64,000 nucleotides of DNA from Octopus vulgaris. Lineage: Eukaryota. Shown piece by piece: positions 36 through 24,379 of this stretch. The notes under the pieces were generated by a model that was not told the DNA's origin, searched no databases, and saw only the letters and a list, made by a program, of their open reading frames with translations. The translations under genes and the position numbers were made by a program. The DNA lies in NCBI GenBank assembly GCA_951406725.2, contig OX597820.1, positions 17,732,001 through 17,796,000 on the forward strand, given 5' to 3'. Each line of letters starts with the position of its first letter. Position 1 is the first letter of the stretch.

Positions 36-221
36 CGCAATAATTACGCGCGCAATATCTGAGTAAAGACTAAATCTTCGACATTGGTAACTGCTTTTCA
101 AGATTTCTTCGTTTCTCGTTTTCATAAATATTATCACAAATTACAATGCATATATACAGGACTGAAATACACACGCATGATTTAAAAGATGCATATTTGG
201 CGTATAGGCGCATGTACTGCC

Positions 222-370
222 GTGTGATAGAAGGCTTGGTCCTTTTCTATTGACCAATGTTGGCTATTGATGTCGGAGTTTCTTATGCATTTCATCCATT
301 TGCTGACAGCACTCCTACGCCGTAATGGTTTCGCCTGGATCCAAAAAGCTGTGATGGATGAGACTGGCCT
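222..370 (-). mobile_element. mariner transposase fragment (catalytic domain, degenerate)
   Basis: Paralog of 11926-12071; translates to a SLIHHSFLDPGETI...VNRKGP-like segment. Confidence 0.75.
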
Positions 371-572
371 AATTATTCAAAAAGAAAAAAAGAGTAACAC
401 GATTAGATAGAGCGAAAAACGGGCTTTAAAATGATATAGGAAGTCAAAATAATTTAACGAAAATTAATTTGAAAATACATCATTTAAAACTAAAATTAAA
501 AATTCCACAAGAACTTTCTTGACAACCTAATATATAGTAGAAAAACTAGATTCAAAGAATAAAAAACACAAT

Positions 573-644
573 TGCGTCGGCCGGGAGTCGAACCCGGATC
601 GACTGCTTGGAAGGCAACCATGCTAACCGTTACACCACCGACGC
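573..644 (-). tRNA. tRNA-Gly(TCC): tRNA-Gly(TCC), consensus copy
   Basis: 72-nt cloverleaf: acceptor stem GCGTCGG/CCGACGC, anticodon loop CTTCCAA, T-loop TTCGACT. T-run terminator downstream and TATTTA at about -30. Confidence 0.97.
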
Positions 645-1272
645 CATACGTTTACACATACTAAATATTTGAATAAATACGCAATATTCAACATTGATTT
701 CTTCTTCCTTCTTTTTCTTTGATGTCATTTCAAATTACAAAATTGCATTACTTTGTTTAGATCAGAAACATCTAACACGATGCTCGCACATGCGTGTGTG
801 TTTCTTTGTGCTTGCTCGTCCACTCTACTTGATAACCGATGCCGGTTTGTTTACGTCTTCGTAACTTAGCTGCTCGGCAAAAGACGGGGATGGAATAAGT
901 ACTAGACATGAGAAAAGGAAAAGTATTTGGGTTGATTTTTTTCGTCTACGACCCTTTAAGGAGATGTCCCAGTAAAAACGGACGAAATGCCGCTAAGCAT
1001 TTCGTCCGTTCTTACTGGGGCGTCCGTCTTTATGTTGCGAGTTCAAATTCGGACGAGGTTGAATTTGCCTTTTATCCTTTCGGGATCGATAAAATAAGTA
1101 CCAGTTGAGCACTGGGGTTGATGTAGCCCACTAGACCCCTCCACCAAATTTCAAGCCTTGTGCAAGGAGTAGAACGGGTTATTACTACTGCCATTTTTAC
1201 CTTAAATCTGCATTTTGAGATGTTTGATATAAACACGTGATTCAAAGGATAAAAGTAATGCATTTAAAACAT

Positions 1273-1344
1273 TGCGTCGGCCGGGAGCCGAACCCGGATC
1301 GACTGCTTGGAAGGCAACCATGCTAACCGTTACACCACCGACGC
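1273..1344 (-). tRNA. tRNA-Gly(TCC): tRNA-Gly(TCC), T-loop variant (TTCGGCT)
   Basis: One substitution in the B-box/T-loop relative to the consensus. Confidence 0.85.
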
Positions 1345-1491
1345 TGCACGCCTTTTTACCCGAAATATCTGATTAAATCTTAAATCTTCACATTGATGAA
1401 CGTCTTGCTCTTCAAGATTTCTTCGTTTTCTGTTTTCTTAAATATTATCACTAATTACAATGCATCTGCAGGATTGAAATATACACGCATG

Positions 1492-1584
1492 GGATCTTTT
1501 CGGTTTGAACGGCAGTTTTTAACATAATTTCTAGGTAACTAAATCATTTTAAACTTCGTATACTGGTAGAATGTGTTTATAAAA
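1492..1584 (+). mobile_element. truncated MITE (left TIR only)
   Basis: Starts with the GGATCTTTTCGGTTTGAACGGCAGTTTTT terminus, then is deleted into the adjacent SINE. Confidence 0.75.
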
Positions 1585-1921
1585 TCAACGGAACAGCCTG
1601 CTCGTGAAATTAACGTGTAAGTGGCTGAGCAATCCACAGACACGTTTACCCTTAACGTAGTTCACGGGGAGATTCAGCGTGACACAGAGAGTGACAAGGC
1701 CGGCCCTTTGAAATACAGGTACAACAGAAAAGGAAGTAAGAGTGAGAGAAAGTTGCGGTGAAAGTGTACAGCAGGGATCACCACCATCCCCTGCCGGAGC
1801 CTCATGGAGCTTTAAGTGTTTTCGCTCAAAAAACACTCACAACGCCCGGTCTGGGAATCGAAACCGCCATCCTATGACCGCGAGTCCGCTGCCCTAACCA
1901 CTGGGACATTGCGCCTCCACT
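1585..1921 (-). mobile_element. tRNA-derived SINE (family C, GTGGAGGCGCAATGG head), 3'-truncated
   Basis: A-box/B-box head (CAGTGGTTAGG...GGTTTCGATTCCC); same insertion point (CTACCGCTAA) as the copies at 5212 and 7412. Confidence 0.8.
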
Positions 1922-2240
1922 CTACCGCTAAACCATCTGTGCTACACTATTAAAGGAGCTTGTGTGTGTGCGTATGTGTGCGTGTGTGTGTGTGTATGTG
2001 CGTGCGTGTGTGTGAGTCTGGCCCACCACAGCTTGATAACCGCTATCGGTTTGTTTACATGGACGTAACTTCGCTGTTATGCAAGGAAGACTGACAGACG
2101 AAGCGCCAGACTGTACTATGGCCGATTTGTTCGATTAGAAACTTTCAAAATCAATTCTCCAGTCTGGCTGCAATCCAGTGATTGCACCAAAATGAAAGAT
2201 ATATAGTAGAAAAACTAGATTCAAAGGATAAAAACACAAT

Positions 2241-2312
2241 TGCGTCTGCCAGGTGTCGAACCCGGATCGACTGCTTGGAAGGCAACCATGCTAACCGTTA
2301 CACCACCGACGC
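2241..2312 (-). pseudogene. tRNA-Gly(TCC): tRNA-Gly(TCC), likely pseudogene
   Basis: Three substitutions in the acceptor stem and T-arm; the upstream TATA-like block is deleted. Confidence 0.75.
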
Positions 2313-2775
2313 TGCACGTACACAGCTCCATTTTCTTAAATATTATCACAAATTACAATTAATATATAGGACTGAAATATACACGCATGATTTTTTAAAA
2401 TGTATATTTACGTATAAGCGTAGGTACTGCCGTGTGGTAAGAGGGTCGCTTCTAAATCACATAATTTCGGTTTCAGTCCCACTGCATGGCACCTTGGGAA
2501 AATGTCTTCTATTGTAATAGTAGTAGTGTGTGTGTCTGTCCCAACCCCGCTTGATAACACTATCGGTTTGTTTGAGTCGAAGTAACTTAGCAGTTAAACA
2601 AAGAAGATTGATAGACCAAGAGCCAGACTTTACAAAATAAGTACTACGTCCGATTTGTTCGATTAAACCCCACCAAAATCGATACTCCACTATGGCTGCA
2701 ATCCAATGACTGCACCAAAATAAGAAATATATAGTAGAAAAACCGGAGATTCATCCGATAAAAACCTACAAATAT

Positions 2776-2847
2776 TGCGTCGGCCGGGAGTCGAACCCGG
2801 ATCGACTGCTTGGAAGGCAACCATGCTAACCGTTACACCACCGACGC
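2776..2847 (-). tRNA. tRNA-Gly(TCC): tRNA-Gly(TCC), consensus copy
   Basis: Exact match to the 72-nt consensus. Confidence 0.97.
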
Positions 2848-3433: not shown

Positions 3434-3504
3434 TGCGTCGGCCGGGAGTCGAACCCGGATCGACTGCTTGGAAGGCAACCATGCTAACCGTTACACCACG
3501 GCGC
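3434..3504 (-). pseudogene. tRNA-Gly(TCC): tRNA-Gly(TCC) with damaged 5' acceptor strand
   Basis: 1-nt deletion plus a substitution in the 5' acceptor strand (GCGCCG-TGG). Confidence 0.75.
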
Positions 3505-3848
3505 TCTGCTGCTGCTATCTTTAAATATTTGCATAAATATTAAATATTTGTCATTGTGAAAGTCTTACTTCTCATAATTTCTTAGTCTCGCGTTTTCTTG
3601 AATTTAATTTTAAACTACAAATTTTTATTCAGACCAGTGACGTCTGCTGACCACTTTAAAAGGGGGCGATGAGCTGGTAGAATCGTTTGAATGCCGGACA
3701 ACATGCTTAGCGGCATTTCGTCCGTTTTCACGTTCTGAGTTCAAATCCCACCGAGGTTGATTTCAGGGTCGATAAAATAAGTAAAATTTGAACAGCACAA
3801 AAATAAGATATAGTGGAAAAATCCTAGATGCAACGGATAAAATGCAAT

Positions 3849-3920
3849 TGCGTCGGCCGGGAGTCAAACCAGGATCGACTGCTTGGAAGGCAACCATGCT
3901 AACAGTTATACCACCAACGC
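3849..3920 (-). pseudogene. tRNA-Gly(TCC): tRNA-Gly(TCC) pseudogene
   Basis: Five substitutions, including the B-box (TTTGA) and the D-loop GG; the 5' spacer is largely deleted. Confidence 0.85.
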
Positions 3921-4093
3921 TGCACAAATATCTCTTTAAATACTAAATCTTCGACATTGGTGAAAGTCTTGCTCTTCAAGTTTTCGTTTCTTGTTTTCAT
4001 AAATATTATCACAAATTACAATGCATATACAGGGCTAAAATACACACGCATAATTTAAAAGATGCATATTTGACGAATGGGTGCAGGTACTGC

Positions 4094-4240
4094 CGTGTGA
4101 TAGAAGGATTGGTCCTTTTCTATTGACCAATGCTGGCTGTTGTCGGGGTTTCTTATGCATTTCATCCATTTGCTGACAGTGCATTTCTGCCGTAGTGGTT
4201 TCGCCTGGATCCAAAAAGCTGTGACGGATGAGACTGGCCT
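4094..4240 (-). mobile_element. mariner transposase fragment (degenerate)
   Basis: Paralog of 11926-12071. Confidence 0.75.
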
Positions 4241-4408
4241 AATTATTCAAAAAGAAAGAGTAACACGATTAGATAGAGCGAAAAACGGGCTTTAAAATGG
4301 TATATAAAGTCAAAGTAATTTAACGAAAATTAATTTGAAAATACACCATTTAAAACTAAAATTCCACAAGAACTTTCTTGACAACATATAGCAGAAAAAC
4401 TGGATTCA

Positions 4409-4428
4409 CCGGAAGTCGAAACCGACGC
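4409..4428 (-). pseudogene. tRNA-Gly remnant with large internal deletion
   Basis: ccggaagtcgaa|accgacgc is a T-arm piece fused to the 5' end, sitting in the normal tRNA slot of the unit. Confidence 0.7.
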
Positions 4429-4576
4429 TGCACAGAGATGTACTCGATATATCTGATTAAATACTAAATCTCCAACATTGGTGAAATTCTTGCTCTTCAA
4501 GTTTTCTTCGTTTCCCGTTTTCTTAAATATTATCACAAATTACAATGCATATGCAGGATTGAAATATACACGCATG

Positions 4577-4968
4577 GCATCCTTTCGGTTTCAACGGCAG
4601 TTTTTAACATAATTTCTAGATAACTAAAACATTTTAAACTTCGTATACTGGTAGAATGTGTTTATAAAACATCTTTTTCTCTTGACTTTATTGAGAAAAT
4701 TGTATAATTTGTAAGATATTTGGTCTCTAATTTCTTGCATTTCGGCAATTTCAATCAATCAATGGCCGTCTATTGAGGTAAAAACATTCTGTGCCGTCTC
4801 GTTTAAGAAACAGATTGGGTTTATTTACGGTTATACATTTGTGCCCACCCCTAACCCTAACCCTAAAACAGATTGAAATGCAATAGATCGATACTAGGGT
4901 CATAATTATGGGTGACAATATCATATGACACCGCTAGAAAAAAACTGCCGTTCAAACCGAAAAGATCC
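4577..4968 (+). mobile_element. MITE with ~29-bp TIRs and internal (CCCTAA)n
   Basis: TIRs G(C/G)ATCYTTTCGGTTTSAACGGCAGTTTTT and AAAAACTGCCGTTCAAACCGAAAAGATCC. Confidence 0.85.
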
Positions 4969-5895: not shown

Positions 5896-5967
5896 TGCGT
5901 CGGCCGGGAGTCGAACCCGGATCGACTGCTTGGAAGGCAACCATGCTAACCGTTACACCACCGACGC
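5896..5967 (-). tRNA. tRNA-Gly(TCC): tRNA-Gly(TCC), consensus copy
   Basis: Exact consensus. Confidence 0.97.
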
Positions 5968-6541
5968 TGCACGTACACAACCCCGAAATATCTGATTAAA
6001 TACTAAATCTTCAACATTAGTGAAAGTTTTGCTCTTCAAGATTTCTTTGATTTCCATTTTCTTAATTATTATCACAAATTACAATTAATATATAGGACTG
6101 AAATATACACGCATGATTTTAAGAAATGTATATTTACGTATAGGCGCAGGTACTGCCGTGTGGTAAGAGGGTCGCTTCCAAAGCACCTAGTTTCGGTTTC
6201 AGTCCCACTGAGTGGCACCTTGGGCAAATGTATTCTATTATAATAGTAGTAGCAGTGTGTGTGTGCGTCTGGCCCAACCCAGCTTGATAACACTATCGGT
6301 TTGTTTGAGTCTAAGTAACTTAGCAGTTAAACAAAGATGACTGATAGACCAAGCAGCAGACTTTACAAATAAGTACTATGTCCGATTAAAACCTTTCAAA
6401 ATCGATACTCCAGTATGACTGTAATACAATGACAGCACCAAAATAAGATATATATAACAGATATATATAAGATATATATAACAGAAAATAAGATATATAT
6501 AACAGAAAAATCCTAGATGCAACAGATAAAATGTTTAACAA

Positions 6542-6613
6542 TGCGTCGGCCGGGAGTCGAACCCGGATCGACTGCTTGGAAGGCAACCATGCTAACCGTT
6601 ACACCACCGACGC
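6542..6613 (-). tRNA. tRNA-Gly(TCC): tRNA-Gly(TCC), consensus copy
   Basis: Exact consensus. Confidence 0.97.
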
Positions 6614-6761
6614 TGCACGCAATTCTACCCGAAATATCTGATTAAATCTGAAATCTTCGACATTGATGAACGTCTTGCTCTTCAAGATTTCTTCGTTTCC
6701 CGTTTTCTTAAATATTATCACAAATTACAATGCATATACAGGATTGAAATATACACGCATG

Positions 6762-7169
6762 GGATCTTTTCGGTTTCAACGGCAGTTTTTAACATAATTT
6801 CTAGGCAACATTTTAAACTTCGTATACTCGTAGAATGTATTTATAAAACATCTTTTTCTCTTGGCTTTATTGAGAAAATTGTATAATTTGTAAGATATTT
6901 GGTCTCTAATTTCTTGTATTTCGGCAATTTCAATCAATCAATGGCCGTCTATTGAGGTAAAAACATTCTGTGCCGTCTCGTTTAAGAAACAGATTGGGTT
7001 TATTTACGGTTATACATTTGTGAAGAAAAAAAGATACCCTTCCCCCCACCCCTAACCCTAACCCTAAAACAGATTGAAATGCAATAGATAGATACTAGGG
7101 TCATAATTATGGGTGACAATATCATATGACACCGCTAGAAAAAAACTGCCGTTCAAACCGAAAAGATCC
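6762..7169 (+). mobile_element. MITE with ~29-bp TIRs and internal (CCCTAA)n
   Basis: GGATCTTTTCGG...CCGAAAAGATCC inverted termini. Confidence 0.85.
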
Positions 7170-7748: not shown

Positions 7749-8104
7749 CTACCGCTAAACCAGCTGTGCTACACTATTATAGGAGCTTGTGTGTGTGCGC
7801 ATGTGTGCGTGTGTGTGTCTGTGTGTGTGTGTGTTTGTGTGTTTGTGTGTGTATGTGTGTGTGTGTGTGGTGTGTATGAGTTTGGCCCACCACCGCTTGA
7901 TAACCACTATCGGCTTGTTTACGTAGACGTAACTTCGCTGTTATGCAAGGAAAACTGACAGACGAAGCGCCAGACTGTACTGTGGCCGATTTGTTCGATT
8001 AGAAACTTTCAAAATCAATTCTCCAGACTGGCTGCAATCCAGTGATTGCACCAAAATAAAAGATATATAGTAGAAAAACTAGATTCAAAGGATAAAAACA
8101 CAAT

Positions 8105-8176
8105 TGCGTCGGCCGGGAGTCGAACCCGGATCGACTGCTTGGAAGGCAACCATGCTAACCGTTACACCACCGACGC
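8105..8176 (-). tRNA. tRNA-Gly(TCC): tRNA-Gly(TCC), consensus copy
   Basis: Exact consensus. Confidence 0.97.
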
Positions 8177-8960
8177 TGCACGTACACAACCCCGAAATAT
8201 CTGATTAAATACTAAATCTTTGACATTGGTGAAAGTTTTGCTCTTCAAGATTTCTTTGATTTCCATTTTCTTAAATATTATCACAAATTACAATTAATAT
8301 ATAGGACTGAAATATACACGCATGATTTTTAAAAATGTATATTTACGTATAGGCGCAGGTACTGCCGTGTGGTAAGAGAATCGCTTCTAAATCACATTGT
8401 TTCGGTTTCAGTCCCACTGAGTGGCACCTTGGGCAAATGTCTTCTATTATAATAGTAGTAGCAGTGTGTGTGTGCGTCTGTCGCACCCCGCTTGATAACA
8501 CTATCAACATTGAATCGAAGTAACTTAGCAGTTAAACAAAGAAGATGGATAGACCAAGCGCCAAACTTTACAAAATAAGTACTATATCCGATTAAAACCT
8601 TTCAAAATCGATACTCCAATATGGCCGTCGCATCTTTTGTATGTTGTACTTTCTACACGTATACATATATTTAGTGTACCTATGTCTTTTAAGTCGTCAG
8701 TATGTGCATTTATAAACAGAGCGTTATATCCACCTTGTATTTATTTTTATACTCGTACATATATTTCCATGATTATATTTTCTAATAGAGAGTGGAAAGA
8801 AAATTATATTCACTATTTCTTTGCTTTTAAATATAAATTAAAATTTATTTAGTTATATAAAGTATAACATTACTGTCATCAACGTGTGTCACTCACTCTG
8901 TTAATCCAAAAGAAGCTATAGTAGAAAAATCCTAGATGCAACGGATAAAATATTTAACAT

Positions 8961-9032
8961 TGCGTCGGCCGGGAGTCGAACCCGGATCGACTGCTTGGAA
9001 GGAAACCATGCTAACCGTTACACCACCGACGC
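8961..9032 (-). tRNA. tRNA-Gly(TCC): tRNA-Gly(TCC), anticodon-stem variant
   Basis: GTTGC->GTTTC breaks one anticodon-stem pair. Confidence 0.8.
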
Positions 9033-9180
9033 TCCACGCGGCTCTGCCCGAAATATCTGATGAAATCTTAAATCTTCGACATTGATGAACGTCTTGCGCT
9101 TCAAGTTTTCTTCGTTTCCCGTTTTCTTAGATATTATCACAAATTACAATGCATATGCACGATTGAAATATACACGCATG

Positions 9181-9612
9181 GGATCTTTTCGGTTTGAACG
9201 GCAGTTTTTAACATAATTTCTAGGTAGCTAAAACATTTTAAACTTCGTACACTGGTAGAATGTATTTATAAAACATCTTTTTCTCTTGGCTTTATTGAGA
9301 AAATTCTATAGTTTGTAAGATATTTGGTCTCTAATTTCTTGTATTTCGGCAATTTCAACCAATCAATGACAGTCTATTGAGGTGAAAACATTCTGTGTCG
9401 TATGAATATGCCCCTCGTTTAAGAGACAGATTGGGTTTATTTACATTTGTGAAGAAAAAAAGATACCCTTTTCTCCACCCCTAACCCTAACTAACCCTAA
9501 CCCTAACCCTAAAACATTGAAATGCAATAGATCGATACTAGGGTCATAATTATGGGTGACAATTTCATATAACACCGCTAGAAAAAAACTGCCGTTCAAA
9601 CCGAAAAGATCC
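9181..9612 (+). mobile_element. MITE with ~29-bp TIRs and internal (CCCTAA)n
   Basis: Perfect TIR pair; CCCTAA repeats at ~9478-9513. Confidence 0.85.
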
Positions 9613-10118
9613 GGCGTATGTACTGCCGTGTGGTAAGAGGGTCGCTTCTAAATCATATAATTTCGGTTTCAGTCCCACTGCGTGGCACCTTGGGCAAATA
9701 TCGCTGACAGTCACACACGCGTCTAGAGATGTTGCGTGTCAGTCGCCAAGTGATTCCGCTAACGGCTGAAAAGACGCCACCTACCGGAATGGTTGCCAAG
9801 GGAGGTTACCCAATCGTGTTGTTTACGGAAGGAATGCGATCGCTACTACCGCTGAACCATCTGTGCTAAACTATTATAGGAGCTTGTGTGTGTGTGTGTG
9901 TATGAGTCTGGCCCACCACCGCTTGATAACCGCTATCGGCTTGTTATGCAAGGAAGACTGAAAGACCAGGCGCGAGACTTTACAAAATATGTACTATGGC
10001 CGATTTGTTCGATTAGAAACTTTCAAAATCAATTTTCCACTCTGGCTGCAATCCAATGACTGCACCAAAATAAAAGATATATAGTAGAAAAACTAGATTC
10101 AAAGGCTAAAAATACAAC

Positions 10119-10190
10119 TGCGTCGGCCGGGAGTCGAACCCGGATCGACTGCTTGGAAGGCAACCATGCTAACCGTTACACCACCGACGC
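10119..10190 (-). tRNA. tRNA-Gly(TCC): tRNA-Gly(TCC), consensus copy
   Basis: Exact consensus. Confidence 0.97.
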
Positions 10191-10726
10191 CTCACGTACA
10201 TATCATGAAATATCTTGATAAATACTAAATCTCCAACATTGGTGAAAGATTTTGCTTTTCAAGATTTCTTTGGTTTCCATTTTCTTAAATATTATCACAA
10301 ATTACAATTAATATAGAGGACTGAAATATACACGCATGATTTTTAAAAATGTATATTTACTTATAGGCGCAGGTACTGCCATGTGGTAAGAGGGTCGCTT
10401 CTAAATCACATATTTTCGGTTTCAGTCCCACTGCATGGCACCTTGGGCAAATGTCTTCTATTGTAATAGTAGTAGTGTGTATGTCTGTCCCAACCCCGCT
10501 TGATAACACTATCGGTTTGTTTGAGTCGAAGTAACTTAGCAGTTAAACAAAGGAGATTGATAGACCAAGAGCCTGACTTTACAAAATAAGTACTATGTTG
10601 ATTTTTTTTATTACAACCCACCAAAATCGATACTCCAGTATGGCTGCAATCCAATGACTGCACCAAAATAAGATATATATATATAGTAGAAAAACCAGAG
10701 ATTCATCCGATAAAAATTATTAATAT

Positions 10727-10798
10727 TGCGTCGGCCGGGAGTCGAACCCGGATCGACTGCTTGGAAGGCAACCATGCTAACCGTTACACCACCGACGC
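10727..10798 (-). tRNA. tRNA-Gly(TCC): tRNA-Gly(TCC), consensus copy
   Basis: Exact consensus. Confidence 0.97.
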
Positions 10799-11383
10799 CA
10801 TACAGTTATGAGTACTAAATATTTGTATAAATATGCAATATTCAACATGATTTCTTCTTCCCTCTTTTTCTTTGATGTCATTTCAAATTACTAAATTACA
10901 TTACTTTACTAAGAACAGAAACATCTGACACGATGCTCGCGCATGCGTGTGTGTTTATTTGTGCATGCTCCCCTACTCTACTTGATAACCGATGTCGGTT
11001 TGTTTACCTCTTCGTAACTTAGCTGTTCGGCAAAAGACGGATAGAATAAGTACCAGACATGAGAAAAGAAAATTGATCTGTTCGTCTACGACCCTTTAAG
11101 GAAGAAATGCTTAGCGGCATTTCGTCCGTTTTTACTGGGGCATCTCCTCCTTTCCACCGACTTTATGTTCTGAGTTCAAATTCGGACGAGGTTGAATTTG
11201 TCTTTCATCCTTTTGGAATCGATAAAATAAGTACTAGTGGAGCACTGGGGTTGATGTAGCCGACTAGCCCCCTCCATCAAATTTCAAGCCTCGTGCATGG
11301 GTTATTATTATTCTCATTTTCACTTTAAATCTGCATGTTTACCTTTTGAGATTGAATGGATAAAATTAATGTAATTAAAACAT

Positions 11384-11398
11384 TGCGTCGGCCGGGAG
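11384..11398 (-). pseudogene. tRNA-Gly 3'-end remnant at a deletion junction
   Basis: tgcgtcggccgggag is fused directly to SINE sequence (gcagatgtcttc). Confidence 0.7.
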
Positions 11399-11664
11399 GC
11401 AGATGTCTTCTATTATAATTGTAGTAGTAGGGTGTATGTGCGTCTGGTCCAACCCCGCTTGATAACACTATCGGTTCATTTGAGTCGAAGTAACTTCGAA
11501 GTTAAACAAAGATGAATAACAGACCAAGCGCCAGACTTTACAAAATACTATGTCCGATTAAAACCTTTCAAAATCGATACTCCAATATGGCTGTAATATA
11601 ATGACAGCACCAAAATAAGATATAGTAGAAAAATCCTTGATGCAACGGATAAAATACCTAACAT

Positions 11665-11736
11665 TGCGTCGGCTGGGAGTCGAACCCGGATCGACTGCTT
11701 GGAAGGCAACCATGCTAACCGTTACACCACCGACGC
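11665..11736 (-). tRNA. tRNA-Gly(TCC): tRNA-Gly(TCC), T-stem variant
   Basis: One G->A change in the T-stem. Confidence 0.85.
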
Positions 11737-11925
11737 TGCACAAGGTTTTGTCCGAAATATCTCTTTAAATACTAAATCTTCGACATTGGTGAAAGTCTTG
11801 CTCTTCAAGTTTTCTTCGTTTCTCGTTTTCATAAATATTATCACAAATTACAATAAATATACAGGACTGAAATACACACGCATGATTTAAAAGATGCATA
11901 TTTGACGAATGGGCGCAGGTACTGC

Positions 11926-12071
11926 CGTGTGGTAGAAGGATTGATCCTTTTCTATTGACCAATGCTGGCTGTTGTCGGGGTTTCTTATGCATTTCATCCA
12001 TTTGCTGACAGTACTTCTCCGCCACAATGGTTTCGCCTGGATCCAAAAAGCTGTGATGGATGAGACTGGCC
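11926..12071 (-). mobile_element. mariner (Hsmar1/Mos1-type) transposase fragment
   Basis: Translation SLIHHSFLDPGETIVAEKYCQQMDEMHKKPRQQPALVNRKGSILLPH resembles the mariner GLIHYSFLNPGETITSEKY...LVNRKGPILLHDNARPH segment. No TIRs. Confidence 0.85.
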
Positions 12072-12266
12072 TAATTATTCAAAAAGAAAGAGTAACACGA
12101 TTAGATAGAGCGAAAAACGGGCTTTAAAATGAATGGTATATAAAGTCAAAGTAATTTAACGAAAATTAATTTGAAAATACATCATTGAAAACTAAAATTC
12201 CACAAGAACTTTCTTGACAACCTAATATATAGTAGAAAAACTAGATTCAAATGATAAAATAACCAT

Positions 12267-12338
12267 TGCGTCGGTCGGGAGTCGAACCCGGATCGACTGC
12301 TTGGAAGGCAACCATGCTAAACGTTACACCACCGACGC
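12267..12338 (-). tRNA. tRNA-Gly(TCC): tRNA-Gly(TCC), two substitutions (possible pseudogene)
   Basis: T-stem G->A and D-loop GG->GT. Confidence 0.7.
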
Positions 12339-13905
12339 CGCACATAAATGTATTCGAAATATCTGATTAAATACTAAATCTTCGACGTTAGCGAAATTCT
12401 TGCTTTTCATGATTTCTTCGTTTCTCATTTTCTTAAATATTATCACAAATTACAATAAATATACAGGACTGAAGGATCTTTTCTTTTTGAAAGCCAGATT
12501 TTCCTAGTTAACTAAACAATTTGAAACTTCGTATACTGGTAAAATCTGTCAAAAGAAAACATAATTGTAAACCAAAATGAAAACGGAATTGCAATTTCTA
12601 AGTTTAACGTTGTTTAAAAATTCGAATTTTAACCAATGATATTCTTTCTTTCGGCCTCATATTATTTACTGCTTCTCAAAATATTGTTACTGTGACGTAA
12701 ACAGCTATTTTGTGACGTAGTTAACATAGTTAAAATGTAAACATCACCGTCCCATTTCGAAATAGCTGTCGAGAATAAAATGAAATTTCGATGGTAAATT
12801 TTTGGAGGGGTTTCGGTAATTTAGTTTCGATATAAAAAATAAAATTGCACAAAATTTTGGCACAAGACCAACAATTTGGGAGGAGGGGTTAATCGATTAC
12901 ATTGACTGGTACTTAATTGATCATGAAAGGTAAAGTCGACGACGACGGTATCGTGAGGAGTCGGAAGAAATGCCACAAGGTATTTTGTCCGACGCACGAA
13001 CGATTCTGCCTGCTTGCCCCACCCCCTTCCTTAATAATTTTTCTTTCCCCAGTAAGTACAAGGACTGAAGCTGATGGGAAGAACTAGTCGATTGTATTCA
13101 ACTGGTACTTATTCTATAAGCGCCACCCGAAAGAAGGAAAGCTCAGCAATATTCGAACACGGAACGTAAAGATTCGTAAGAAATGACGCTAGGCATTTTA
13201 TCCGATGCACTACCGATTCTGCCAGCTTTACATTATATTTTTCGTCGAAGTTTAACTATGTCACCTTGATGATATATTTTTACGCGTGGACAAATAATAG
13301 AGAGATAATGTGGATCAGATGATATTACATGCTGACAAGGGCTTGGTAAAGGACTGTTAGAATGTTTAGGGATACGGTCCTATACGTTCGGGTTTCAACC
13401 CTCACCGGAATTCAAAACAAGCTGTCTGTTCTTCCACGGTCGAGAAAATACATCGATCAAGTATTGGAGATCGATATAAATGATTATACCCTCCACTCAC
13501 CCCAAAATATATGCTTTGTGTCTATAATCAATATTACAAATATATTGTTATTGCTATTTAACTCAGGTCATCCTAATAAACCCGGTTGAGGATCAAAGGG
13601 TTCCAACTATGACCAACCTGTATTTTTGCGCCCCCCCCCTTTTTTTTCAGATATAGCATCTATGATTATATTAGCCAATGTACCCTTCCTTTAACCCGGT
13701 AGTATATGGTTTTAAGGGGATTTGGGTGTTATTCATAGCACATTCACGAGCGAAAACGCAGAGGGGCCCTGATTATGTGCGAGTATGCGTATGGATGGGT
13801 ACGTGTGTGTATGTGGGTGCATACAAGCCAAATAACCGGTTCAAGGCATGTGCCAAACTGAAGAATCAAAGCGTGTGCACAAGTTTATAGTAAATATATA
13901 CATTG

Positions 13906-14326
13906 GGATCTTCTCGGTTTGAACGTCAGTTTTTAACATAATTTCTAGGTAACTAAAATATTTTAAACTTCGTATACTGGTAGAATGTGTTTATAAAACA
14001 TCTTTTTCTCTTGGCTTTATTGAGAAAATTCTATGGTTTGTAAGATAATTGGTCTCTAATTTCTTGCATTTCGGCAATTTCAACCAATCAATGACCGTCT
14101 ATTGAGGTGAAAACATTCTGTGCCGTATGAATATGTCCCTCGTTTAAGAAACAGATTGGGTTTATTTACATTTGTGAAGAAAAAAGATACCCTTCCCCCC
14201 ACCCATAACTAACCCTAACCCTAAAACAGATTGAAATGCAATAGATCGATACTAGGGTCATAATTATGGGTGACAATTTCATATGACACCGCTAGAAAAA
14301 AACTGCCGTTCAAACCGAAAAGATCC
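13906..14326 (+). mobile_element. MITE with TIRs and internal (CCCTAA)n
   Basis: Same family; the left flank differs from other copies. Confidence 0.85.
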
Positions 14327-14684
14327 GGCGTATGTACTGCCGTGTGGTAAGAGGATCGCTTCTAAATCATATAATTTCGGTTTCAGTCTCACTGCATGGC
14401 ACCTTGGGCAAATGTCTTCTATTGTAATAGTAGTAGTGTGTATGTCTGTCCCAACCCCGCTTGATAACACTATCGGTTTGTTTGAGTCGAAGTAACTTAG
14501 CAGTTAAACAAAGAAGATGGATAGACCAAGCGCCTGACTTTACAAAATAAGTACTATGTTGATTTTTTTCGATTACAACCCACCAAAATCGATACTCCAC
14601 TATGGCTGCAATCCAATGACTGCACCAAAATAAGAAATATATATTAGAAAAACCCGAGATTCATCCGATAAAATTTATAAAGAT

Positions 14685-14756
14685 TGCGTCGGCCGGGAGT
14701 CGAACCCGGATCGACTGCTTGGAAGGCAACCATGCTGACCGTTACACCACCGACGC
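14685..14756 (-). tRNA. tRNA-Gly(TCC): tRNA-Gly(TCC), D-loop variant
   Basis: Single T->C in the D-loop. Confidence 0.92.
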
Positions 14757-15383
14757 CATACAGTTACGAGTGCTAAATATTTGAATAAATACACAATATT
14801 CAACATTGATTTCTTCTTCCCTCTTTTTCTTTGATGTCATTTCAAATTACAAAATTACATTACTTTATTTAGATCAGAAACATATAACACGATGCTCGCG
14901 CATGCGTGTGCGTTTCTTTGTGCATGCTCGCCCACTCTACTTGATAACCGATGCCGGTTTGTTTACGTCTTTGTAACTTAGCTGCTCGGCAAAAGACAGG
15001 GATAGAATAAGTACCAGACATGAGAAAAGAAAAAGTATCCGGATTGATTTGTTCGTCTGCGACCCTTCAAGGAGATGTCCCAGTAAAAACGGACGAAACG
15101 CCGCTAAGCATTTCGTCCGTTTTTACTGGGGCATCTCCTCGTTTCGTCTGTCTTTATATTCCGAGTTCAAATTCGGACGAGGTTGAATTTGCTTTTTATC
15201 CTTTTGGAATCGATAAAATAGTACCAGTTGAGCACTGGGGTTGATGTAGCCCACTAGCCCCCTCCATCAAATTTCAAGCCTTGTGCATGAAGTAGAATGG
15301 GTTATTATTATTCTCATTTTCAATTTAAATCTGCATGTTTACCTTTTAAGATTGAAAGGATAAAAGTAATGCATTTAAAACAC

Positions 15384-15455
15384 TGCGTCGGCCGGTAGTC
15401 GAACCCGGATAGACTGCTTGGAAGGCAACCATGCTAACCGTTACACCACCGACGC
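15384..15455 (-). tRNA. tRNA-Gly(TCC): tRNA-Gly(TCC), two substitutions (possible pseudogene)
   Basis: C->A at the B-box end/T-stem and a variable-loop change. Confidence 0.7.
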
Positions 15456-15978
15456 TCTGCTGCTGTGATCTTTAAATATTTGCTTAAATGCTAAATATTT
15501 GTCATTGTGAAAGTCTTATTTCTCATAATTTCTTCGTCTCGCGTTTTTCTTGAATATAACGTTAAACTACAAAATTTTATTCAGACCAGTGACCTCTGCT
15601 GACCACCTTAAAAGGAGGCGATGAGCTGGTAGGATCGTTTGAATGCCGGACAATATGCTTAGCGGCATTTCGTCCGTTTTCACGTTCTGAGTTCAAATTC
15701 CACCGAGGTTGACTTTCAGAGTCGATAAAATAAATAAAAATTGAACAGGTAATTTACTTAACACCCTAACCCTAACCCACCCCACCCACCCCGAAATTGC
15801 TGTCCTTGTGCCACAATTTGAAATCACTATTTAGATCCAGAAACATTTAGAAACATAACATGGCAGTCCTGGTTTAGGACTAATGTTGCTGTAATTTAGC
15901 CCCAGGAGACATCGTCTCCAGCTGGCTATACGACACGATCTGCCATGTTATGTTGGCAAACAATCTTTACTCCAAAGT

Positions 15979-16515: not shown

Positions 16516-16577
<62 letters not shown>

Positions 16578-17359: not shown

Positions 17360-17431
17360 TGCGTCGGCCGGGAGTCGAACCCGGATCGACTGCTTGGAAG
17401 GCAACCATACTAACCGTTACACCACCGACGC
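17360..17431 (-). tRNA. tRNA-Gly(TCC): tRNA-Gly(TCC), D-stem variant
   Basis: One C->T giving a G-U pair. Confidence 0.88.
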
Positions 17432-17904
17432 TGCACAAGGTTTTATCCGAAATATCTGACTAAAAACTAAATCTTCGATATTGGGGAACTTCTTGCTTTT
17501 AGTGATTTCTTCGTTTCTCGTTTTCTTAAATATTGTCACAAATTACAATAAATATACAGGACTGAAATATACACACATGATTTAAAAGATGCATATTTGA
17601 CGAATGGGCGCAGTGTTGTCATAGGGTTTCGGTTTCGGTTCCGGTTTCAGTCCCACTGCGTGGCACCTTGGGCAAATATCTTCTATTATAATAGTAGTAG
17701 CAGTGTGTGTGCACGTCTGGCCCAACCCCGCTTGATAACACTATTGGTTTGTTTGAGTCGAAGTAACTTAGCAATTAAACATTTACAAAATGTCCGATTA
17801 AAACCCATCAAAATCGATACTCCAATATGGCTGTAATCCAATGACAGCACCAAAATAAGAAATATATAAAAAATCCCAGATGCAACAGATAAAATGTTTG
17901 ACAT

Positions 17905-17976
17905 TGCGTCGGTCGGGAGTCGAACCCGGATCGACCACTTGGAAGGCAACCATGCTAACAGTTACACCACCAACGC
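17905..17976 (-). pseudogene. tRNA-Gly(TCC): tRNA-Gly(TCC) pseudogene
   Basis: Five substitutions, including the anticodon stem and the D-loop GG. Confidence 0.85.
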
Positions 17977-18123
17977 TGCACGTAGTTCTACTCGAAATAT
18001 CTGATTAAATCTTAAATCTTCACATTGATGAACGTCTTGCTCTTCAAGTTTTCTTCGTTTCCCGTTTTCTTAAATATTATCACAAATTACAATGCATATG
18101 CACGATTGAAATATACACGCATG

Positions 18124-18831: not shown

Positions 18832-18891
<60 letters not shown>

Positions 18892-19124: not shown

Positions 19125-19196
19125 TGCGTCGGCCGGGAGTCGAACCCGGATCGACTGCTTGGAAGGCAACCATGCTAACCGTTACACCACCGACGC
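19125..19196 (-). tRNA. tRNA-Gly(TCC): tRNA-Gly(TCC), consensus copy
   Basis: Exact consensus. Confidence 0.97.
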
Positions 19197-19736
19197 CGCA
19201 CGGGCATAATCGCGAAATATCTGATTAAATACGAAATCTCCAACATTGGTGAAAAATTTTGCTTTTCAAGATTTCTTTGGTTTCCATTTTCTTAAATATC
19301 ATCACAAATTACAATTAAAATATAGGACTGAAATATACATGATTTTTTTAAATGTATATTTACGTATAGGCCCAGGTACTGCCGTGTGGTAAGAGGGTCG
19401 CTTCTAAATCACATAGTTTCGGTTTCAGTCCCACTGCATGGCACCTTGGGCAAATGTCTTCTATTGTAATAGTAGTAGTAGTAGTAGTAGTAGTAGGTGT
19501 GCGTCTGTCCCAACCCCGCTTGATAACACTATCAGTTTGTCTGAGTCGAAGTAACTTAATCCGTTAAACACAGAAGATTGATAGACCAAGAGCCAGACTT
19601 TACAAAATAAGTACTATGTCCGATTAAAACCTTTCAAAATCGATACTCCTATATGGCTGTATCCAATGACTACACCAAAGTAAGATATATATATAGTAGA
19701 AAAATCCTAGATGCAAAGGATAAAAATAGTTAACAT

Positions 19737-19808
19737 TGCGTCGGCCGGGAGTCGAACCCGGACCGACTGCTTGGAAGGCAACCATGCTAACCGTTACACC
19801 ACCGACGC
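19737..19808 (-). tRNA. tRNA-Gly(TCC): tRNA-Gly(TCC), variable-loop variant
   Basis: Single A->G in the variable loop. Confidence 0.92.
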
Positions 19809-20392
19809 TGAACATACTCGTTCCCGAAATATCTCTTTAATTACTAAATCTTCGACATTGGTGAAAGTCTTGCTCTTCAAGTTTTCTTCGTTTCTTGTTT
19901 TCATAAATATTATCACAAATTACAATGCATATACAGGACTGAAATACACACGCATGATTTAAAAGATGCATATTTGACGAATGGGCGCAGGTACTGCCGT
20001 GTGGTAGAAGGTTTGGTAAGAGGGTTGCTTCTAAATCACATAATTTCGGTTTCAGTCCCACTCCATGGTACCTTGGGCAAATGTCTTCTATTGTAGTAGT
20101 AGTAGTAGTAGTGGTAGTGGTAGTAGTAGTAGTAGTAGTAGTAGTAGTGTGTGTGTCTGGCCCAACCCCGCTTGATAACACTATCAACATTGAGTCGAAG
20201 TAACTTAGCAGTTAAACAAAGAAGATTGATAGATCAAGAGCCAGACTTTACAAAATAAGTACTATGTTGATTTTTTCGATTACAACCCACCAAAATCGAT
20301 ACTCCACTATGGCTGCAATCCAATGACTGCACCAAAATGAGAAATATATAGTAGAAAAACCCCGAGATTCATCCGATAAAAACTATCAATAC

Positions 20393-20464
20393 TGCGTCGG
20401 ACGGGAGTCGAACCCAGATCGACTGCTTGGAAGGCAACCATGCTAACCGTTACACCACCGATGC
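20393..20464 (-). pseudogene. tRNA-Gly(TCC): tRNA-Gly(TCC), likely pseudogene
   Basis: Three substitutions in the acceptor and T stems. Confidence 0.7.
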
Positions 20465-21064
20465 CATACGCTTACGTTTACTAAATATTTGAATAAATAC
20501 GCAATATTCAACATTGATTTCTTCTTCCCTCTTTTTCTTTGATGTCATTTCAAATTACAAAATTACATTACTTTGTTTAGATCAGAAACATCTAACACGA
20601 TGCTCGCGCATGCGTGTGTGTTTCTTTGTGCATGCTCGCCCACTCTACTTGATAACCGATGCCGGTTTGTTTACGTCTTTGTAACTTAGCTGCTCGGCAA
20701 AAGACAGGGATAGAATAAGTACCAGACATGAGAAAAGAAAAAGTATCCGGAGATGTCCCAGTAAAAACGGACGAAACGCCGCTAAGCATTTCGTCCGTTT
20801 TTACTGGGGCATCTCCTCGTTTCGTCTGTCTTTATATTCCGAGTTCAAATTCGGACGAGGTTGAATTTGCTTTTTATCCTTTTGGAATCGATAAAATAGT
20901 ACCAGTTGAGCACTGGGGTTGATGTAGCCCACTAGCCCCCTCCATCAAATTTCAAGCCTTGTGCATGAAGTAGAATGGGTTATTATTATTCTCATTTTTA
21001 CTTTAAATTTGCATGTTTGTTACCTTTTGAGATTGAAAGGATAAAAGTAATGCATTTGAAACAT

Positions 21065-21136
21065 TGCGTCGGCCGGGAGTCGAACCCGGATCGACTGCTT
21101 GGAAGGCAATCATGCTAACCGTTACACCACCGACGC
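21065..21136 (-). tRNA. tRNA-Gly(TCC): tRNA-Gly(TCC), anticodon-stem G->A variant (G-U to A-U)
   Basis: Single change compatible with the structure. Confidence 0.92.
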
Positions 21137-22089
21137 TCTGCTACTGTGATCTTTAAATATTTGCTTAAATGCTAAATATTTGTCATTGTGAAAGTCTTAT
21201 TTCTCATAATATCTTCGTCTCGCGTTTTCTTGAATATAATTTTAAACTACAAAATTTTATTCAGAGCAGTGACGTCTGCTGACCACTTTAAAAGGAGGCG
21301 ATGAGCTGGTAGAATCGTTTGAATGCCGGACAATATGCTTAGCGGCATTTCTTCCGTTTTCACGTTCTGAGTTCAAATTCCACCGAGGTTGACTTTCAGA
21401 GTCGATAAAATAAATAAAAATTGAACAGGTAATTTACTTAACACCCTAACCCTAACCCTAACCCACCCCACCCACCCCGAAATTGCTGTCCTTGTGCCAC
21501 AATTTGAAATCACTATTTAGATCCAGAAACATTTGGAGTAAAGATTGTTTGTCAACATAACATGGCAGTCCTGGATTAGGATGAATGTTGCTGTAATTTA
21601 GCCCCAGGAGACATCGTCTCTCGCTGGCTATACGACACGATCTGCCATGTTATGTTGGCAAATAATCTTTACTCCAAAGTACTGTTGCTGAATATCTCTC
21701 GTTGGGAGATTTAAAAATCGTAATTTTCTAATTTACAGAAACATATAATATGATATAATACGGAGTTTGGCAAAGTGTTACCTCTCTCTCTCTCCCTTTC
21801 TCTCTCTCTCACTTTCTCTCTCTCTCTCTCCCTTTCTCTCTCTCCCTTTCTTTCTTTCACTGAGTATTATGAATAAAAAACCTAAACATTTTATCCAAAT
21901 TTTATCTGCTCTGCTATGAATAAATCGACTTTTAATGACTTCGTGTACATTGGCTTAGTAACACGGGGTACGGGAGGTCGGCGGGTGCAAACGCACCGCC
22001 TAAAATTTTGGTGGGGCGGGATTTGAAATATTACTTTTCCATTATTAGATTCATCTCATTTGATTGATGTACAAATATAATAATAATCC

Positions 22090-23195
22090 TTTCTAATAAA
22101 GGCACAAGGCCTGAAATTTGGTTGGAGTGGGAAGTCGATTACATCGATCCCCGAAATTTAATTTGTCGACCACCTCGGTGGAATTTGAACTCAGAACTAA
22201 AAACGAGCGAAATGCCGAGGAGCATTTTGCCTGCCGTGCTAACGATTCTTTTCTACTCTAGACACAAGGCCCGAAATTCGTTTTTGTGTGGGGTAGGGGG
22301 CCAGTCGATTATATTAACTCCTGTATGCAACTGGAACTTAATTTACAGACCCCAAAAGTATGAAAGGCAAAGTCAACCTCGACGGAATTTGAACTAAGAA
22401 CGTAAAAAAATATCGCTAAGCATTTCACCCATTTCTTATTTCTTTATTGCCCACAAGGGGCTAAACATAAAGAGGACAAACAAGGACAGACAAACGGTTT
22501 CGGTAGATTACATCGACTGGTGCGTAACTGGTACTTAATTTATGGACCCCGAAAGGATGAAAGGCAAAGTCGATCTCGGTGGATTTTAAACTCAGAACGT
22601 AGCCGCAGACGAAATACCTATTTCTTTACTACCCACAAGGGGCTAAACACAGAGAGGACAAACAAGGACAGACAAACGGTTTCGGTAGATTACATCGACT
22701 GGTGCGTAACTGGTACTTAATTTATCGACCCCGAAAGGATGAAAGGCAAAGTCGATCTCGGTGGATTTTAAACTCAGAACGTAGCCGCAGACGAAATACC
22801 TATTTCTTTACTACCCACAAGGGGCTAAACACAGAGAGGACAAACAAGGACAGACAAACGGTTTCGGTAGATTACATCGACTGGTGCGTAACTGGTACTT
22901 AATTTATCGACCCCGAAAGGATGAAAGGCAAAGTCGATCTCGGTGGATTTTAAACTCAGAACGTAGCCGCAGACGAAATACCTATTTCTTTACTACCCAC
23001 AAGGGACTAAACACAGAGAGGACAAACAAGGACAGACAAACGGATTAAGTCGATTACATCGACCCAGTGCGTAACTGGTAATTTATCGACCCCGAAAGGA
23101 TGAAAGGCAAAGTCGACCTTTGAACTTAGAACGTAACGGCAGACGAAGTACGGCTACGCATATCGCCCGGCGTGCTAACGTTTCTGCCAGCTCAA
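22090..23195 (-). mobile_element. Nin-domain-like SINE multimer including a 182-bp tandem array
   Basis: Units contain GGTCGACTTTGCCTTTCATCCTTTCGGGGTCGATAAATTAAGTACCAG (Nin-domain-like); near-identical ORFs at 22520 and 22702 give the 182-bp period. Confidence 0.8.
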
Positions 23196-23494
23196 CACCT
23201 TATACAAATATAATAATAAATAGTAATAAAACTGTGCTTAAGACGGCGAGCTGGCAGAGTCGTTAGCATGCCACACAAAATGCTCAGCGGCGTTTAATCC
23301 GTTTTCACCGTTCTGTGTTCAAATTCCGCCAAGTTCGAATTTGCCTTTCGGAGTCGATAAAATACGTACCAATTGAGCACTGGGATCGATATATTTGTTA
23401 GAGTAGTGAGGTGAATGCATTAATTGTAACTACATGTAAAACATTTTTGCTCGGAAGATTTGTCCGGGGAATATTAATCTTTATATAAGACATC

Positions 23495-23527
<33 letters not shown>

Positions 23528-24344
23528 TCCATATTCACTTTATTGCTTACCTTTTTACGACCTCTGATGAAACAGAAAAATTTAAAACGATCCATGAATT
23601 GGAGGTATTTGTTTTTAAACTGTAATTCTATTAGAATTGTCTTCGTCAAATGTTCGATTTAACATAATCTATTTGCATCGGGTCAATGACATGCTGGTGA
23701 CTTCAAATAAGGATGAAATAGCGCTATACATTGCTACAAACAATTGAAAATTTTAAGATCTATATATTGAGTACGAAAGAGAAATAATATATGTATATAT
23801 TCTGTACATCTCATTCCTTACTCTTTGATTTAAATTTCAAGCGTTAAAACTGCCTGAACTTAATGTAATCTAGAAGGGACTGTCTTCAATAAGATAACTG
23901 ATCAGTGCAGCGAGCTGGCAGAAACGTTAGCACACCGGGCGAAATGCGTAGCCGTATTTCGTCTGACGTTACGTTCTGAGTTCAAATTCCGCCGAGGTCG
24001 ACTTTACCTTTCATCCTGTCGGGGTCGATAAATTAAGTACCAGTTACGCGCTAGGGTCGATGTAATCGACTTAATCCCTTTGTCTGTCCTTGTTTCACTC
24101 CTCTATGTTTAGCCCCTTGTGGGTAATAAAGAAACAGGTATTTCGTCTGCCAAGCTAAGTTACGAAGACGTAAACAAACCGTCACCGGTTATCAAGTAGA
24201 GTGGGCGAGCAAGCACAAAGAAACACACACGCATGCGCGAGCATCGTGTTAGATGTTTCTGATCTAAAGAAAGTAATGTAATTTTGTGATTTGAAATGAC
24301 ATCAAAGAAAAAGAGGGAAGAAGAAATCAATGTTGAATATTGCC

Positions 24345-24351
24345 TATTTAA
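24345..24351 (+). promoter_or_regulatory. TATA-like element upstream of the tRNA (TATTTAA, about -35 to -29)
   Basis: An equivalent AT-rich motif sits at the same distance in most array copies; a TATA at about -30 is typical of Pol III genes. Confidence 0.55.
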
Positions 24352-24379
24352 TCAAATATTTAGTACTCGTAAATGTATG

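Follow-up and report, generated by a model that had tools for sequence, protein, structure and literature searches.

The window analysed here is a 64,000-nt stretch of the Octopus vulgaris genome (contig OX597820.1, positions 17,732,001 to 17,796,000), and positions 1-24451 of it hold an irregular duplication array of tRNA-Gly(TCC) genes on the minus strand, with copies spaced about 0.5-2.4 kb apart and the last one inverted onto the plus strand. Within the window ARAGORN detected 23 tRNA-Gly(TCC) genes; the one at 24380 is on the plus strand and the other 22 are on the minus strand. With three broken remnants beyond these (1-35, about 4409-4428 and 11384-11398), the array contains 26 copies or remnants, and 25 of them have a 5' end. 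The remnant at 1-35 has lost an internal part, immediately outside the left edge of the window, and the one at 11384-11398 (minus strand) consists of the last 15 nt of the tRNA, with neither a 5' end nor a spacer. No further tRNA-Gly copies were found in the rest of the window or in the 40 kb leftwards of it, where there were 0 tRNAs. One SINE was found by motif scan, with three copies at 22511-22900; it has no bearing on the spacers.

The mean pairwise difference between the tRNA-Gly bodies of 22 copies is 3.4%, and nine of the 22 bodies are identical to the majority sequence. The flanks shared by the units derive from duplication. Three distinct families of upstream flank were observed, A with 14 copies, B with six and C with three, and 5' and 3' families occur in different combinations from copy to copy. 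Within family A the pairwise difference is 13.5% for the flanks and 59% for positions -6 to -16 upstream of the tRNA, referred to below as the core.

Immediately 5' of the tRNA is a spacer that an earlier note on this DNA had described as 19 nt long in most copies, one nucleotide shorter (18 nt) in copies 1 and 10119, and deleted at 2241 and 3849. A recount agreed with this: where the copy has a 5' end (25 cases), the spacer is 19 nt long in 21, 18 nt in two and affected by a deletion in two. The 12 spacers quoted in that note all match the sequence. All spacers are on the minus strand except the last of family B, and copies are named by the first position of their tRNA. In family A, the 19-nt spacers are located at 1345-1363 (tRNA 1273-1344), 4429-4447 (next to the largely deleted remnant at about 4409-4428), 5968-5986 (5896-5967), 6614-6632 (6542-6613), 8177-8195 (8105-8176), 9033-9051 (8961-9032), 11737-11755 (11665-11736), 12339-12357 (12267-12338), 17432-17450 (17360-17431), 17977-17995 (17905-17976, a tRNA with five changes), 19197-19215 (19125-19196) and 19809-19827 (19737-19808). 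The 18-nt spacers, also of family A, are at 36-53, beside the internally deleted remnant 1-35, and at 10191-10208, beside the intact tRNA 10119-10190. Family B has its spacers at 645-663 (573-644), 2848-2866 (2776-2847), 10799-10817 (10727-10798), 14757-14775 (14685-14756), 20465-20483 (20393-20464, three changes in the tRNA) and, on the plus strand, 24361-24379 (inverted tRNA 24380-24451). Those of family C are at 3505-3523 (3434-3504, with a damaged acceptor 5' end), 15456-15474 (15384-15455) and 21137-21155 (21065-21136). The two large deletions left 2313-2326 at tRNA 2241-2312, where a 71-nt deletion that starts in the spacer has also taken the AT-rich block and the tRNA has three changes, and 3921-3926 at tRNA 3849-3920, where 13 nt were lost and the tRNA has five changes. 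With these two copies left out, 22 of the 23 spacers are distinct, in line with the earlier description of a spacer middle that differs almost copy by copy; the identical ones belong to 5896 and 8105. In copy 6542 the core corresponds to 6619-6629, and the AT-rich block (-20 to -37; 6633-6650, minus strand) is likely the region contacted by TFIIIB/TBP. AT enrichment at -20 to -26 and -30 to -36 is common to 34 other tRNA genes of the same genome.

The spacer was found to change much faster than its surroundings. Parsimony on trees built from the flanks only required 72 changes at 57 spacer sites compared with 83 at 273 flank sites, a 4.15-fold excess (binomial p = 5e-17), so that the excess remains after correction for unit phylogeny. 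A tree fitted to the spacer core alone in family A still gave 37 changes at 11 core sites, compared with 0.68 per flank site. In nine disjoint sister pairs the core differed at 28 of 99 positions and the distal shared DNA at 73 of 1632, a rise of about 6-fold (p = 9e-14) for limits of -6 to -16 chosen from these data themselves; the 19 nt set a priori give the 4.15-fold value. The per-position profile exhibited a broad peak at -6 to -16, where the earlier note had predicted one at about -5 to -17, with zero changes at -21 to -26. Its description of the 19-nt spacer as hypervariable holds for the core, but not for -1 to -5, since in the sister pairs neither -1 to -5 (4/45) nor -17 to -26 (1/90) was strongly variable. 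Its hand-counted comparison of 6542 with 8961 was reproduced, with 5 of 19 spacer positions and 7 of 129 flank positions different. The sisters 5896 and 8105 differ at 0 of 19 spacer positions and 4 of 91 flank positions, and no significant excess was found in the three copies of family C (3/19 vs 9/91, 1.6-fold, p = 0.34).

A contrast of this kind could also arise if the spacer were neutral and the flank next to it were conserved by selection, or if the variation came from assembly errors. The slight conservation of -17 to -26 (1/90, p = 0.09) would fit the former. However, the near flank of the sister pairs differed at 35 of 844 positions (4.1%) and the distal shared DNA at 73 of 1632 (4.5%; p = 0.76), and divergence was flat from -27 to beyond -200. 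The near flank thus evolves no more slowly than distal DNA and shows no special conservation, which leaves the spacer as the accelerated part. Assembly error, which the earlier note had named as a possible refutation, was ruled out, because contigs of other samples carry the same or nearly the same spacers. Run X4 gave an exact match to the spacer of copy 14685, and run X1 covers both the 8105 and the 12267 spacer, each with no more than one difference. Of the contigs placed on 10762-10890, one each in X4, X6 and X7 spanned a spacer, and none did in X3. The orthologue-like contigs of X6 and X7 carry one new spacer change each, at copies 14685 and 24380, respectively. Four orthologue-like contig haplotypes, in which an allele is not separable from an extra copy, have 0, 1, 1 and 3 differences in the spacer and about 0-2 in the longer flank. 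Together, the conserved flank and the assembly errors are scarcely credible as explanations. Read contigs placed on 8000-15700 were dominated by high-copy interspersed repeats.

Gene conversion could produce a similar picture if it homogenised the tRNA body and the flank while its tracts stopped at the spacer, or if it shuffled old spacers between flanks. Several observations fit such exchange. The spacers of 11665 and 17360 are one base apart on different flanks, whereas 11665 and 19737 differ at 8/19 spacer positions but at only 2/91 in the flank; the recombination of 5' and 3' flank families across copies agrees with it, as does family B, where core distance does not track flank distance (rho -0.31, p = 0.26). 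Shuffling cannot supply the spacer diversity, however, because the core-only tree, which is free of the flanks, still needs its 37 changes at 11 sites, about 5 times the flank rate. The flat divergence beyond -27 and the new spacer changes in the X6 and X7 contigs also argue against conversion as the source, and a peak at this place has already been published for tRNA genes generally (PMC6130373). We therefore consider this explanation unlikely, and accelerated point change in the core as the better one.

The core sequences also bear on how the spacers came to be different. Core identity between copies is 0.41, compared with 0.26 for random sequences, the nearest-neighbour core distance is smaller than in column shuffles (p = 0.004), and in family A core distance tracks flank distance (rho 0.42, for pairs that are not independent). 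The spacers are related by descent through point changes. In CRISPR-like arrays, a constant sequence is followed by a variable stretch of fixed length, and the earlier note had drawn on this pattern in speaking of a repeat/unique-spacer architecture and a 'barcode' for most copies. The likeness is superficial: the spacers here are related and share both ends, the duplication units are 0.5-2.4 kb long, and nothing indicates acquisition from outside. An array of acquired spacers is contradicted by the core identity, the nearest-neighbour distance and the family A correlation given above.

The constant length appears to have a similar origin. Counted by eye, there were four indel events in the 19-nt spacer and six in the 91-nt flank, and the ratio of indels to substitutions is 4:72 in the spacer and 6:83 in the flank (p = 0.75). 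Spacer indels are thus no rarer than flank indels, contrary to the length constraint that had been proposed. The sole hint of one is that tRNAs are damaged in three of the four off-length copies and in 4 of the 21 full-length copies (p = 0.053), which leaves selection on spacer length borderline; the fixed 19 nt is mostly a matter of common descent. A functional barcode, in which selection would maintain diverse spacers and each leader or start-site context would tune the expression or processing of its own copy, could draw on the same off-length copies and on the distinctness of 22 of the 23 spacers. However, the mutation rate alone yields distinctness, two copies are identical, and the core is near saturation with all changes tolerated. 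Furthermore, PMC6130373 infers that selection on tRNA flanks is weak or absent and points out that RNase P cleaves off the leader at an early stage. A functional role is without support in these data, and we regard it as very improbable.

The changes in the core were raised for all four bases, 5.6-fold for A, 3.7-fold for C, 4.5-fold for G and 6.3-fold for T. Among the 25 polarised core changes, a small sample, A>G, G>A and T>C occurred five times each and C>T three times. Transitions made up 18 of these 25, compared with 32 of 59 (p = 0.15). A check of the substitutions for strand bias, as proposed in the earlier note, was negative (C>T 3/24 vs G>A 5/28, p = 0.71), and the classic deamination signature is missing in the core.

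On the sequence evidence, we consider it very probable that the core of these duplicated tRNA-Gly genes changes about 6 times faster than the surrounding DNA through the opening of DNA by Pol III at initiation. In the germ line, Pol III would melt the DNA just downstream of TFIIIB, itself seated on the AT-rich upstream block, and the melted stretch would gain point changes through damage or error-prone repair. Selection, possibly together with gene conversion, would remove these point changes when they fall in the tRNA body, whereas those in the putative leader region, which would be neutral, would persist. The constant 19 nt would mostly have been passed down from the ancestral unit, because point changes leave length unaltered. 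Occasional short conversion or crossing-over may have placed a spacer on another flank, and the copy-specific spacers would be a by-product with no function. Thus, of the proposal of Pol III start-site hypermutation under a length constraint, the local substitution excess stands and the length constraint found little backing. A more specific version is possible but doubtful: the array may be a mutation-accumulation record of a Pol III initiation hotspot, with the balanced spectrum and the sharp edge at -16/-17 pointing to error-prone processing of the TFIIIB/Pol III open complex and not to cytosine deamination. If true, the faster change in flank families A and B than in C would read out the germ-line activity of each copy in an animal without Pol III data.

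Hypermutation of tRNA flanks is already described in other animals and in plants, and therefore the present finding mainly extends a known phenomenon to a cephalopod. In Thornlow et al. 2018 (PMC6130373), the inner 5' flank is about 4 times more divergent, with a peak 12-15 nt upstream, the inner 3' flank is about 3 times more divergent, and the rise of both is tied to expression. The octopus array agrees with that work in having a narrow maximum some 10-15 nt ahead of the mature tRNA, a dip near -25 at the TBP site, a smaller rise over the 10 nt that follow the gene, a conserved tRNA body and an effect size of 4-10-fold. Its material, as described there, was orthologues and SNPs of human, mouse, Drosophila and Arabidopsis, with an excess of C>T/G>A in tRNA flanks, whereas ours is paralogues from one array in one genome, in which a small sample of changes, known from sequence alone, has a similar rise for each of the four bases. 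Seplyarskiy et al. (bioRxiv 10.1101/2022.08.20.504670) report for the human germ line that mutation at Pol III genes is about 10-fold more frequent and differs greatly from site to site, and propose restructuring triggered by TFIIIB as a cause of upstream hotspots. Strong strand asymmetry is absent there as it is here; their data, as presented, are human SNVs and de novo mutations at tRNA and RNU genes, and ours are fixed differences between duplicates only. Hypervariable tRNA flanks in another invertebrate, Caenorhabditis, have been used as a record of past transcription (PMC13010820, PMC13034040), in these accounts from polymorphism within species, most often G>A and C>T, and not from paralogues of a tandem array. 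A literature search that covered few subscription papers listed no earlier account of the pattern, either for octopus or for tRNA paralogues, which does not establish absence from print. The hotspot can be read from the paralogues of one assembly, with no need of population data. PMC6130373 calls the upstream peak 'curious', and several explanations are offered in 10.1101/2022.08.20.504670; many such arrays pooled could yield a base-resolution profile and spectrum bearing on its cause. The distinct spacers also distinguish otherwise identical tRNA copies in pre-tRNA sequencing or ChIP.

Divergence was raised downstream of the tRNA as well, less than on the 5' side. The trailer from +1 to +10, which in copy 6542 lies ahead of a T4 terminator (6532-6541, minus strand), differed at 13 of 103 positions compared with 37 of 724 (11 disjoint pairs, p = 0.006). 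Within families, the values were highest where the trailer is long (0.20 and 0.27 in two families, compared with 0.07 and 0.09 beyond it), and in the family with a terminator from +4 the trailer was not raised (0.10 vs 0.08). Two tRNA-Cys arrays were also analysed. In a decaying one the upstream excess was not significant for near-intact copies (1.5-fold, p = 0.16) or degenerate copies (1.6-fold, p = 0.12), and since neither class had a significant excess, a contrast between active and dead genes was absent. In an intact array on another contig, 11 changes were found at 11 core sites compared with 9 at 41 flank sites (4.6-fold, p = 0.0009). The intact tRNA-Cys array repeats the pattern, and the upstream excess is not confined to one isotype.

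The array consisted of 26 copies in total, 23 tRNA-Gly(TCC) genes identified by ARAGORN at 573-24451 of the window and three remnants, and copies are named here by their start in the window. No further tRNA was found in the 40 kb left of the window. When the genome (2.8 Gb assembled in 227 contigs) was searched with one array unit, the tRNA part alone matched elsewhere among the 40 of 110 candidates scored (counts are lower bounds), with one exception at C7:17531314, on the contig of the array, where the 3' flank was also present. This lone tRNA-Gly (locus L035, 5313-5384), 200 kb left of the array, retained the array-type 3' flank and carried a TA/TATG microsatellite in place of the 5' end and the spacer. 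The upstream flanks of the array copies formed three families, A (14 copies and two copies with large deletions), B (6) and C (3), and the downstream flanks formed four; upstream and downstream families were recombined among the copies.

The earlier note proposed that the spacer of about 19 nt between the tRNA 5' end and an AT-rich block is hypermutated at the Pol III start site. Every spacer it quoted matched the sequence, and its count for copies 6542 and 8961 (5/19 in the spacer, 7/129 in the flank) was confirmed. The 130 nt upstream of 23 copies were aligned within each family, omitting 11384, which lacks a 5' end, and 2241 and 3849, which carry large deletions, and parsimony changes were counted position by position on trees built from the flank only. 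With unit phylogeny considered in this way, the 19-nt spacer showed 72 changes at 57 sites and the flank 83 at 273 sites, a 4.15-fold excess (p = 5e-17), which peaked at -6 to -16 upstream of the tRNA (the core), as the note had anticipated. The excess was 4.25-fold in family A, 5.6-fold in family B and 1.6-fold in family C (p = 0.34). Nine disjoint sister pairs, hand-picked for long shared upstream DNA and covering 18 of the 23 copies (35, 3434, 4405, 12267 and 17360 were omitted), differed at 4/45 positions from -1 to -5, 28/99 from -6 to -16, 1/90 from -17 to -26, 34/754 from -27 to -110 and 73/1632 beyond -110. In these pairs core changes were about six times as frequent as distal ones (p = 9e-14), and the near flank changed at the distal rate (p = 0.76), indicating that the spacer is accelerated and not that the flank is unusually conserved. 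Since the core limits were drawn from the same data, the 19-nt comparison is the unbiased test. The pair 5896/8105 ran counter to this, its spacers being identical (0/19) while its flanks differed at 4/91.

Mixing of spacers among copies was also considered. The spacer of 11665 had one difference from that of 17360, yet its flank differed at only 2/91 from 19737, and this mismatch (window 11737-11755, 17432-17450 and 19809-19827 in 11665, 17360 and 19737) suggests that a short conversion or crossover event took place around -20 to -27. Recombination among array copies occurs; the best tree found from family A cores alone retained the excess, with 37 changes in 11 sites compared with 0.68 per site in the flank. 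Core identity was 0.41 versus 0.26 at random, and the nearest-neighbour core distance was 3.3, against 4.2 when columns were shuffled (p = 0.004; 11 of the 14 copies in family A), and therefore the cores are related by descent; the same values rule out spacers as acquired sequences.

Contigs from public sequencing runs were compared as well. Run X4 (organism B) had a spacer variant set identical to that of copy 14685, X6 (organism C) had that set with one new change at -8, and X7 (organism D) had the set of 24380 with one difference at -7. Run X1, which could be the sample of the assembly, spanned the spacers of both 8105 and 12267, matching each to within one difference. These matching spacers exclude assembly error. 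Run X3 yielded one flank contig (depth 72) starting at -15 and none across the spacer, as expected if copies have a common flank and branch in the core. A family C haplotype shared by X1 and X3 matched 3434 at three flank markers but differed from it three times in the spacer; it could be allelic or an additional copy. Overall, these contigs lean towards a raised rate, with four haplotypes being too few for a statistical test.

The excess was replicated in a second tRNA family. A tRNA family search of the genome, which scored 63 candidates and gave 34 matches, pointed to a cluster of tRNA-Cys genes at C12:25.259-25.270 Mb. Tandem copies of tRNA-Cys(GCA) formed two interleaved arrays there (C12:25259257-25269930, loci L062 and L046), one of intact units of about 155 bp and one of decaying units of about 177 bp; some copies had altered anticodon loops and several had a genomic CCA after the acceptor stem. 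In ten intact copies, omitting four neighbours whose upstream variant is longer, the core showed 11 changes at 11 sites versus 9 at 41 flank sites (4.6-fold, p = 0.0009). The decaying array gave 1.5-fold for near-intact copies (8 distinct of 11, p = 0.16) and 1.6-fold for degenerate copies (7 distinct of 10, p = 0.12). Low activity could account for these low ratios, and the active-versus-dead contrast is not clean. Across 34 tRNA genes outside the arrays, A+T was about 0.5-0.75 between -19 and the gene, rising to 0.79-0.88 at -20 to -26 and to mainly 0.82-0.94 at -30 to -36. The block called TATA-like in the note is therefore a general AT-rich feature, placed where TBP is reported to bind (PMC6130373), with a putative function in the array.

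The 3' trailer (+1 to +10), ahead of the T-run terminator, was also raised (13/103 versus 37/724, p = 0.006) in 11 disjoint pairs drawn from 22 of the 24 copies. The rise was greatest in the two downstream families whose trailers are 10-11 nt long, and there was none in the family with T4 from +4. The tRNA bodies had a mean difference of 3.4%, with 9 of 22 identical to the majority sequence. Fast zones flanking a conserved body would be expected from a transcription-linked process together with selection on the tRNA. The data establish that the rate is raised, where the excess sits and that it extends beyond one tRNA family. The match to published work suggests transcription as the driver, and initiation by TFIIIC, TFIIIB and Pol III is very probably the source of the spacer hypermutation. 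TFIIIC would recruit TFIIIB to the AT-rich block and Pol III would melt the DNA downstream of it, following the general model (PMC6066478); repeated germ-line initiation would then raise the point-mutation rate in the melted stretch. We regard the array as a clean new case of an effect already known, here seen by comparing paralogous copies.

Core changes were polarised where a copy differed from two agreeing nearest neighbours (n = 25), led by A>G, G>A and T>C (5 each) and C>T (3). Relative to the flank, A, C, G and T changed 5.6, 3.7, 4.5 and 6.3 times as fast, and transitions were 18/25 in the core versus 32/59 (p = 0.15). The strand bias that the note proposed to test was not seen on the non-template strand (C>T 3/24 versus G>A 5/28, p = 0.71) in these 25, partly saturated, changes. 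A C>T/G>A excess is described in tRNA flanks (PMC6130373) and in nematode tRNA flanks (PMC13010820; PMC13034040); it was not apparent in the array cores, a small and partly saturated sample. Within the limits of that sample, the spectrum fits better with bioRxiv 10.1101/2022.08.20.504670, which states that Pol III genes lack strong asymmetry and that restructuring triggered by TFIIIB may be mutagenic.

Among 25 copies with a 5' end, the spacer was 19 nt in 21 and 18 nt in two, and two had deletions of 13 and 71 nt. Counted by eye, four indel events fell within the 19-nt spacer and six within 91 nt of flank. The indel-to-substitution ratio was the same in both (p = 0.75), so the constant length claimed as a constraint needs no special explanation; a hint of selection on length came from damaged tRNAs (at least three changes, or a deletion) in 3/4 off-length copies versus 4/21 others (p = 0.053). 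Human pre-tRNA leaders are reported to be 2-5 nt (PMC6130373) and yeast start sites to lie at -10 to -12 (PMC5356446), and thus the pre-tRNA may include only a portion of the core, or nothing of it. No evidence in this analysis gives the spacers a function, the suggested leader barcode included; they are useful as markers.

Small tRNA-Gly(TCC) clusters were present at C3:61072850-61089580 (loci L036-L038) and L039:4929-5307, with an AAATT/AT-rich block near -24 to -20 common to related copies and, by eye, the greatest differences in the 19-20 nt after it. An inverted tRNA-Arg(TCT) pair at L042:1753-2675 (C4:138.299 Mb), identical over about 50 nt upstream, is probably a recent duplication. At 24141-24700 of the window, between SINE fragments, the final tRNA copy and some 0.5 kb of its unit were in the opposite orientation to the other array copies. 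Short telomere-like CCCTAA runs within duplicated units (4851-4866, 7051-7067, 9479-9512, 15764-15777 and 21444-21463) adjoined a repeat of very high copy number in reads. A 182-184 bp unit resembling the core region of an abundant SINE was repeated head to tail in three arrays, at 22437-23116, 44750-45413 and 50832-51478, with 3.6-3.8 copies each.
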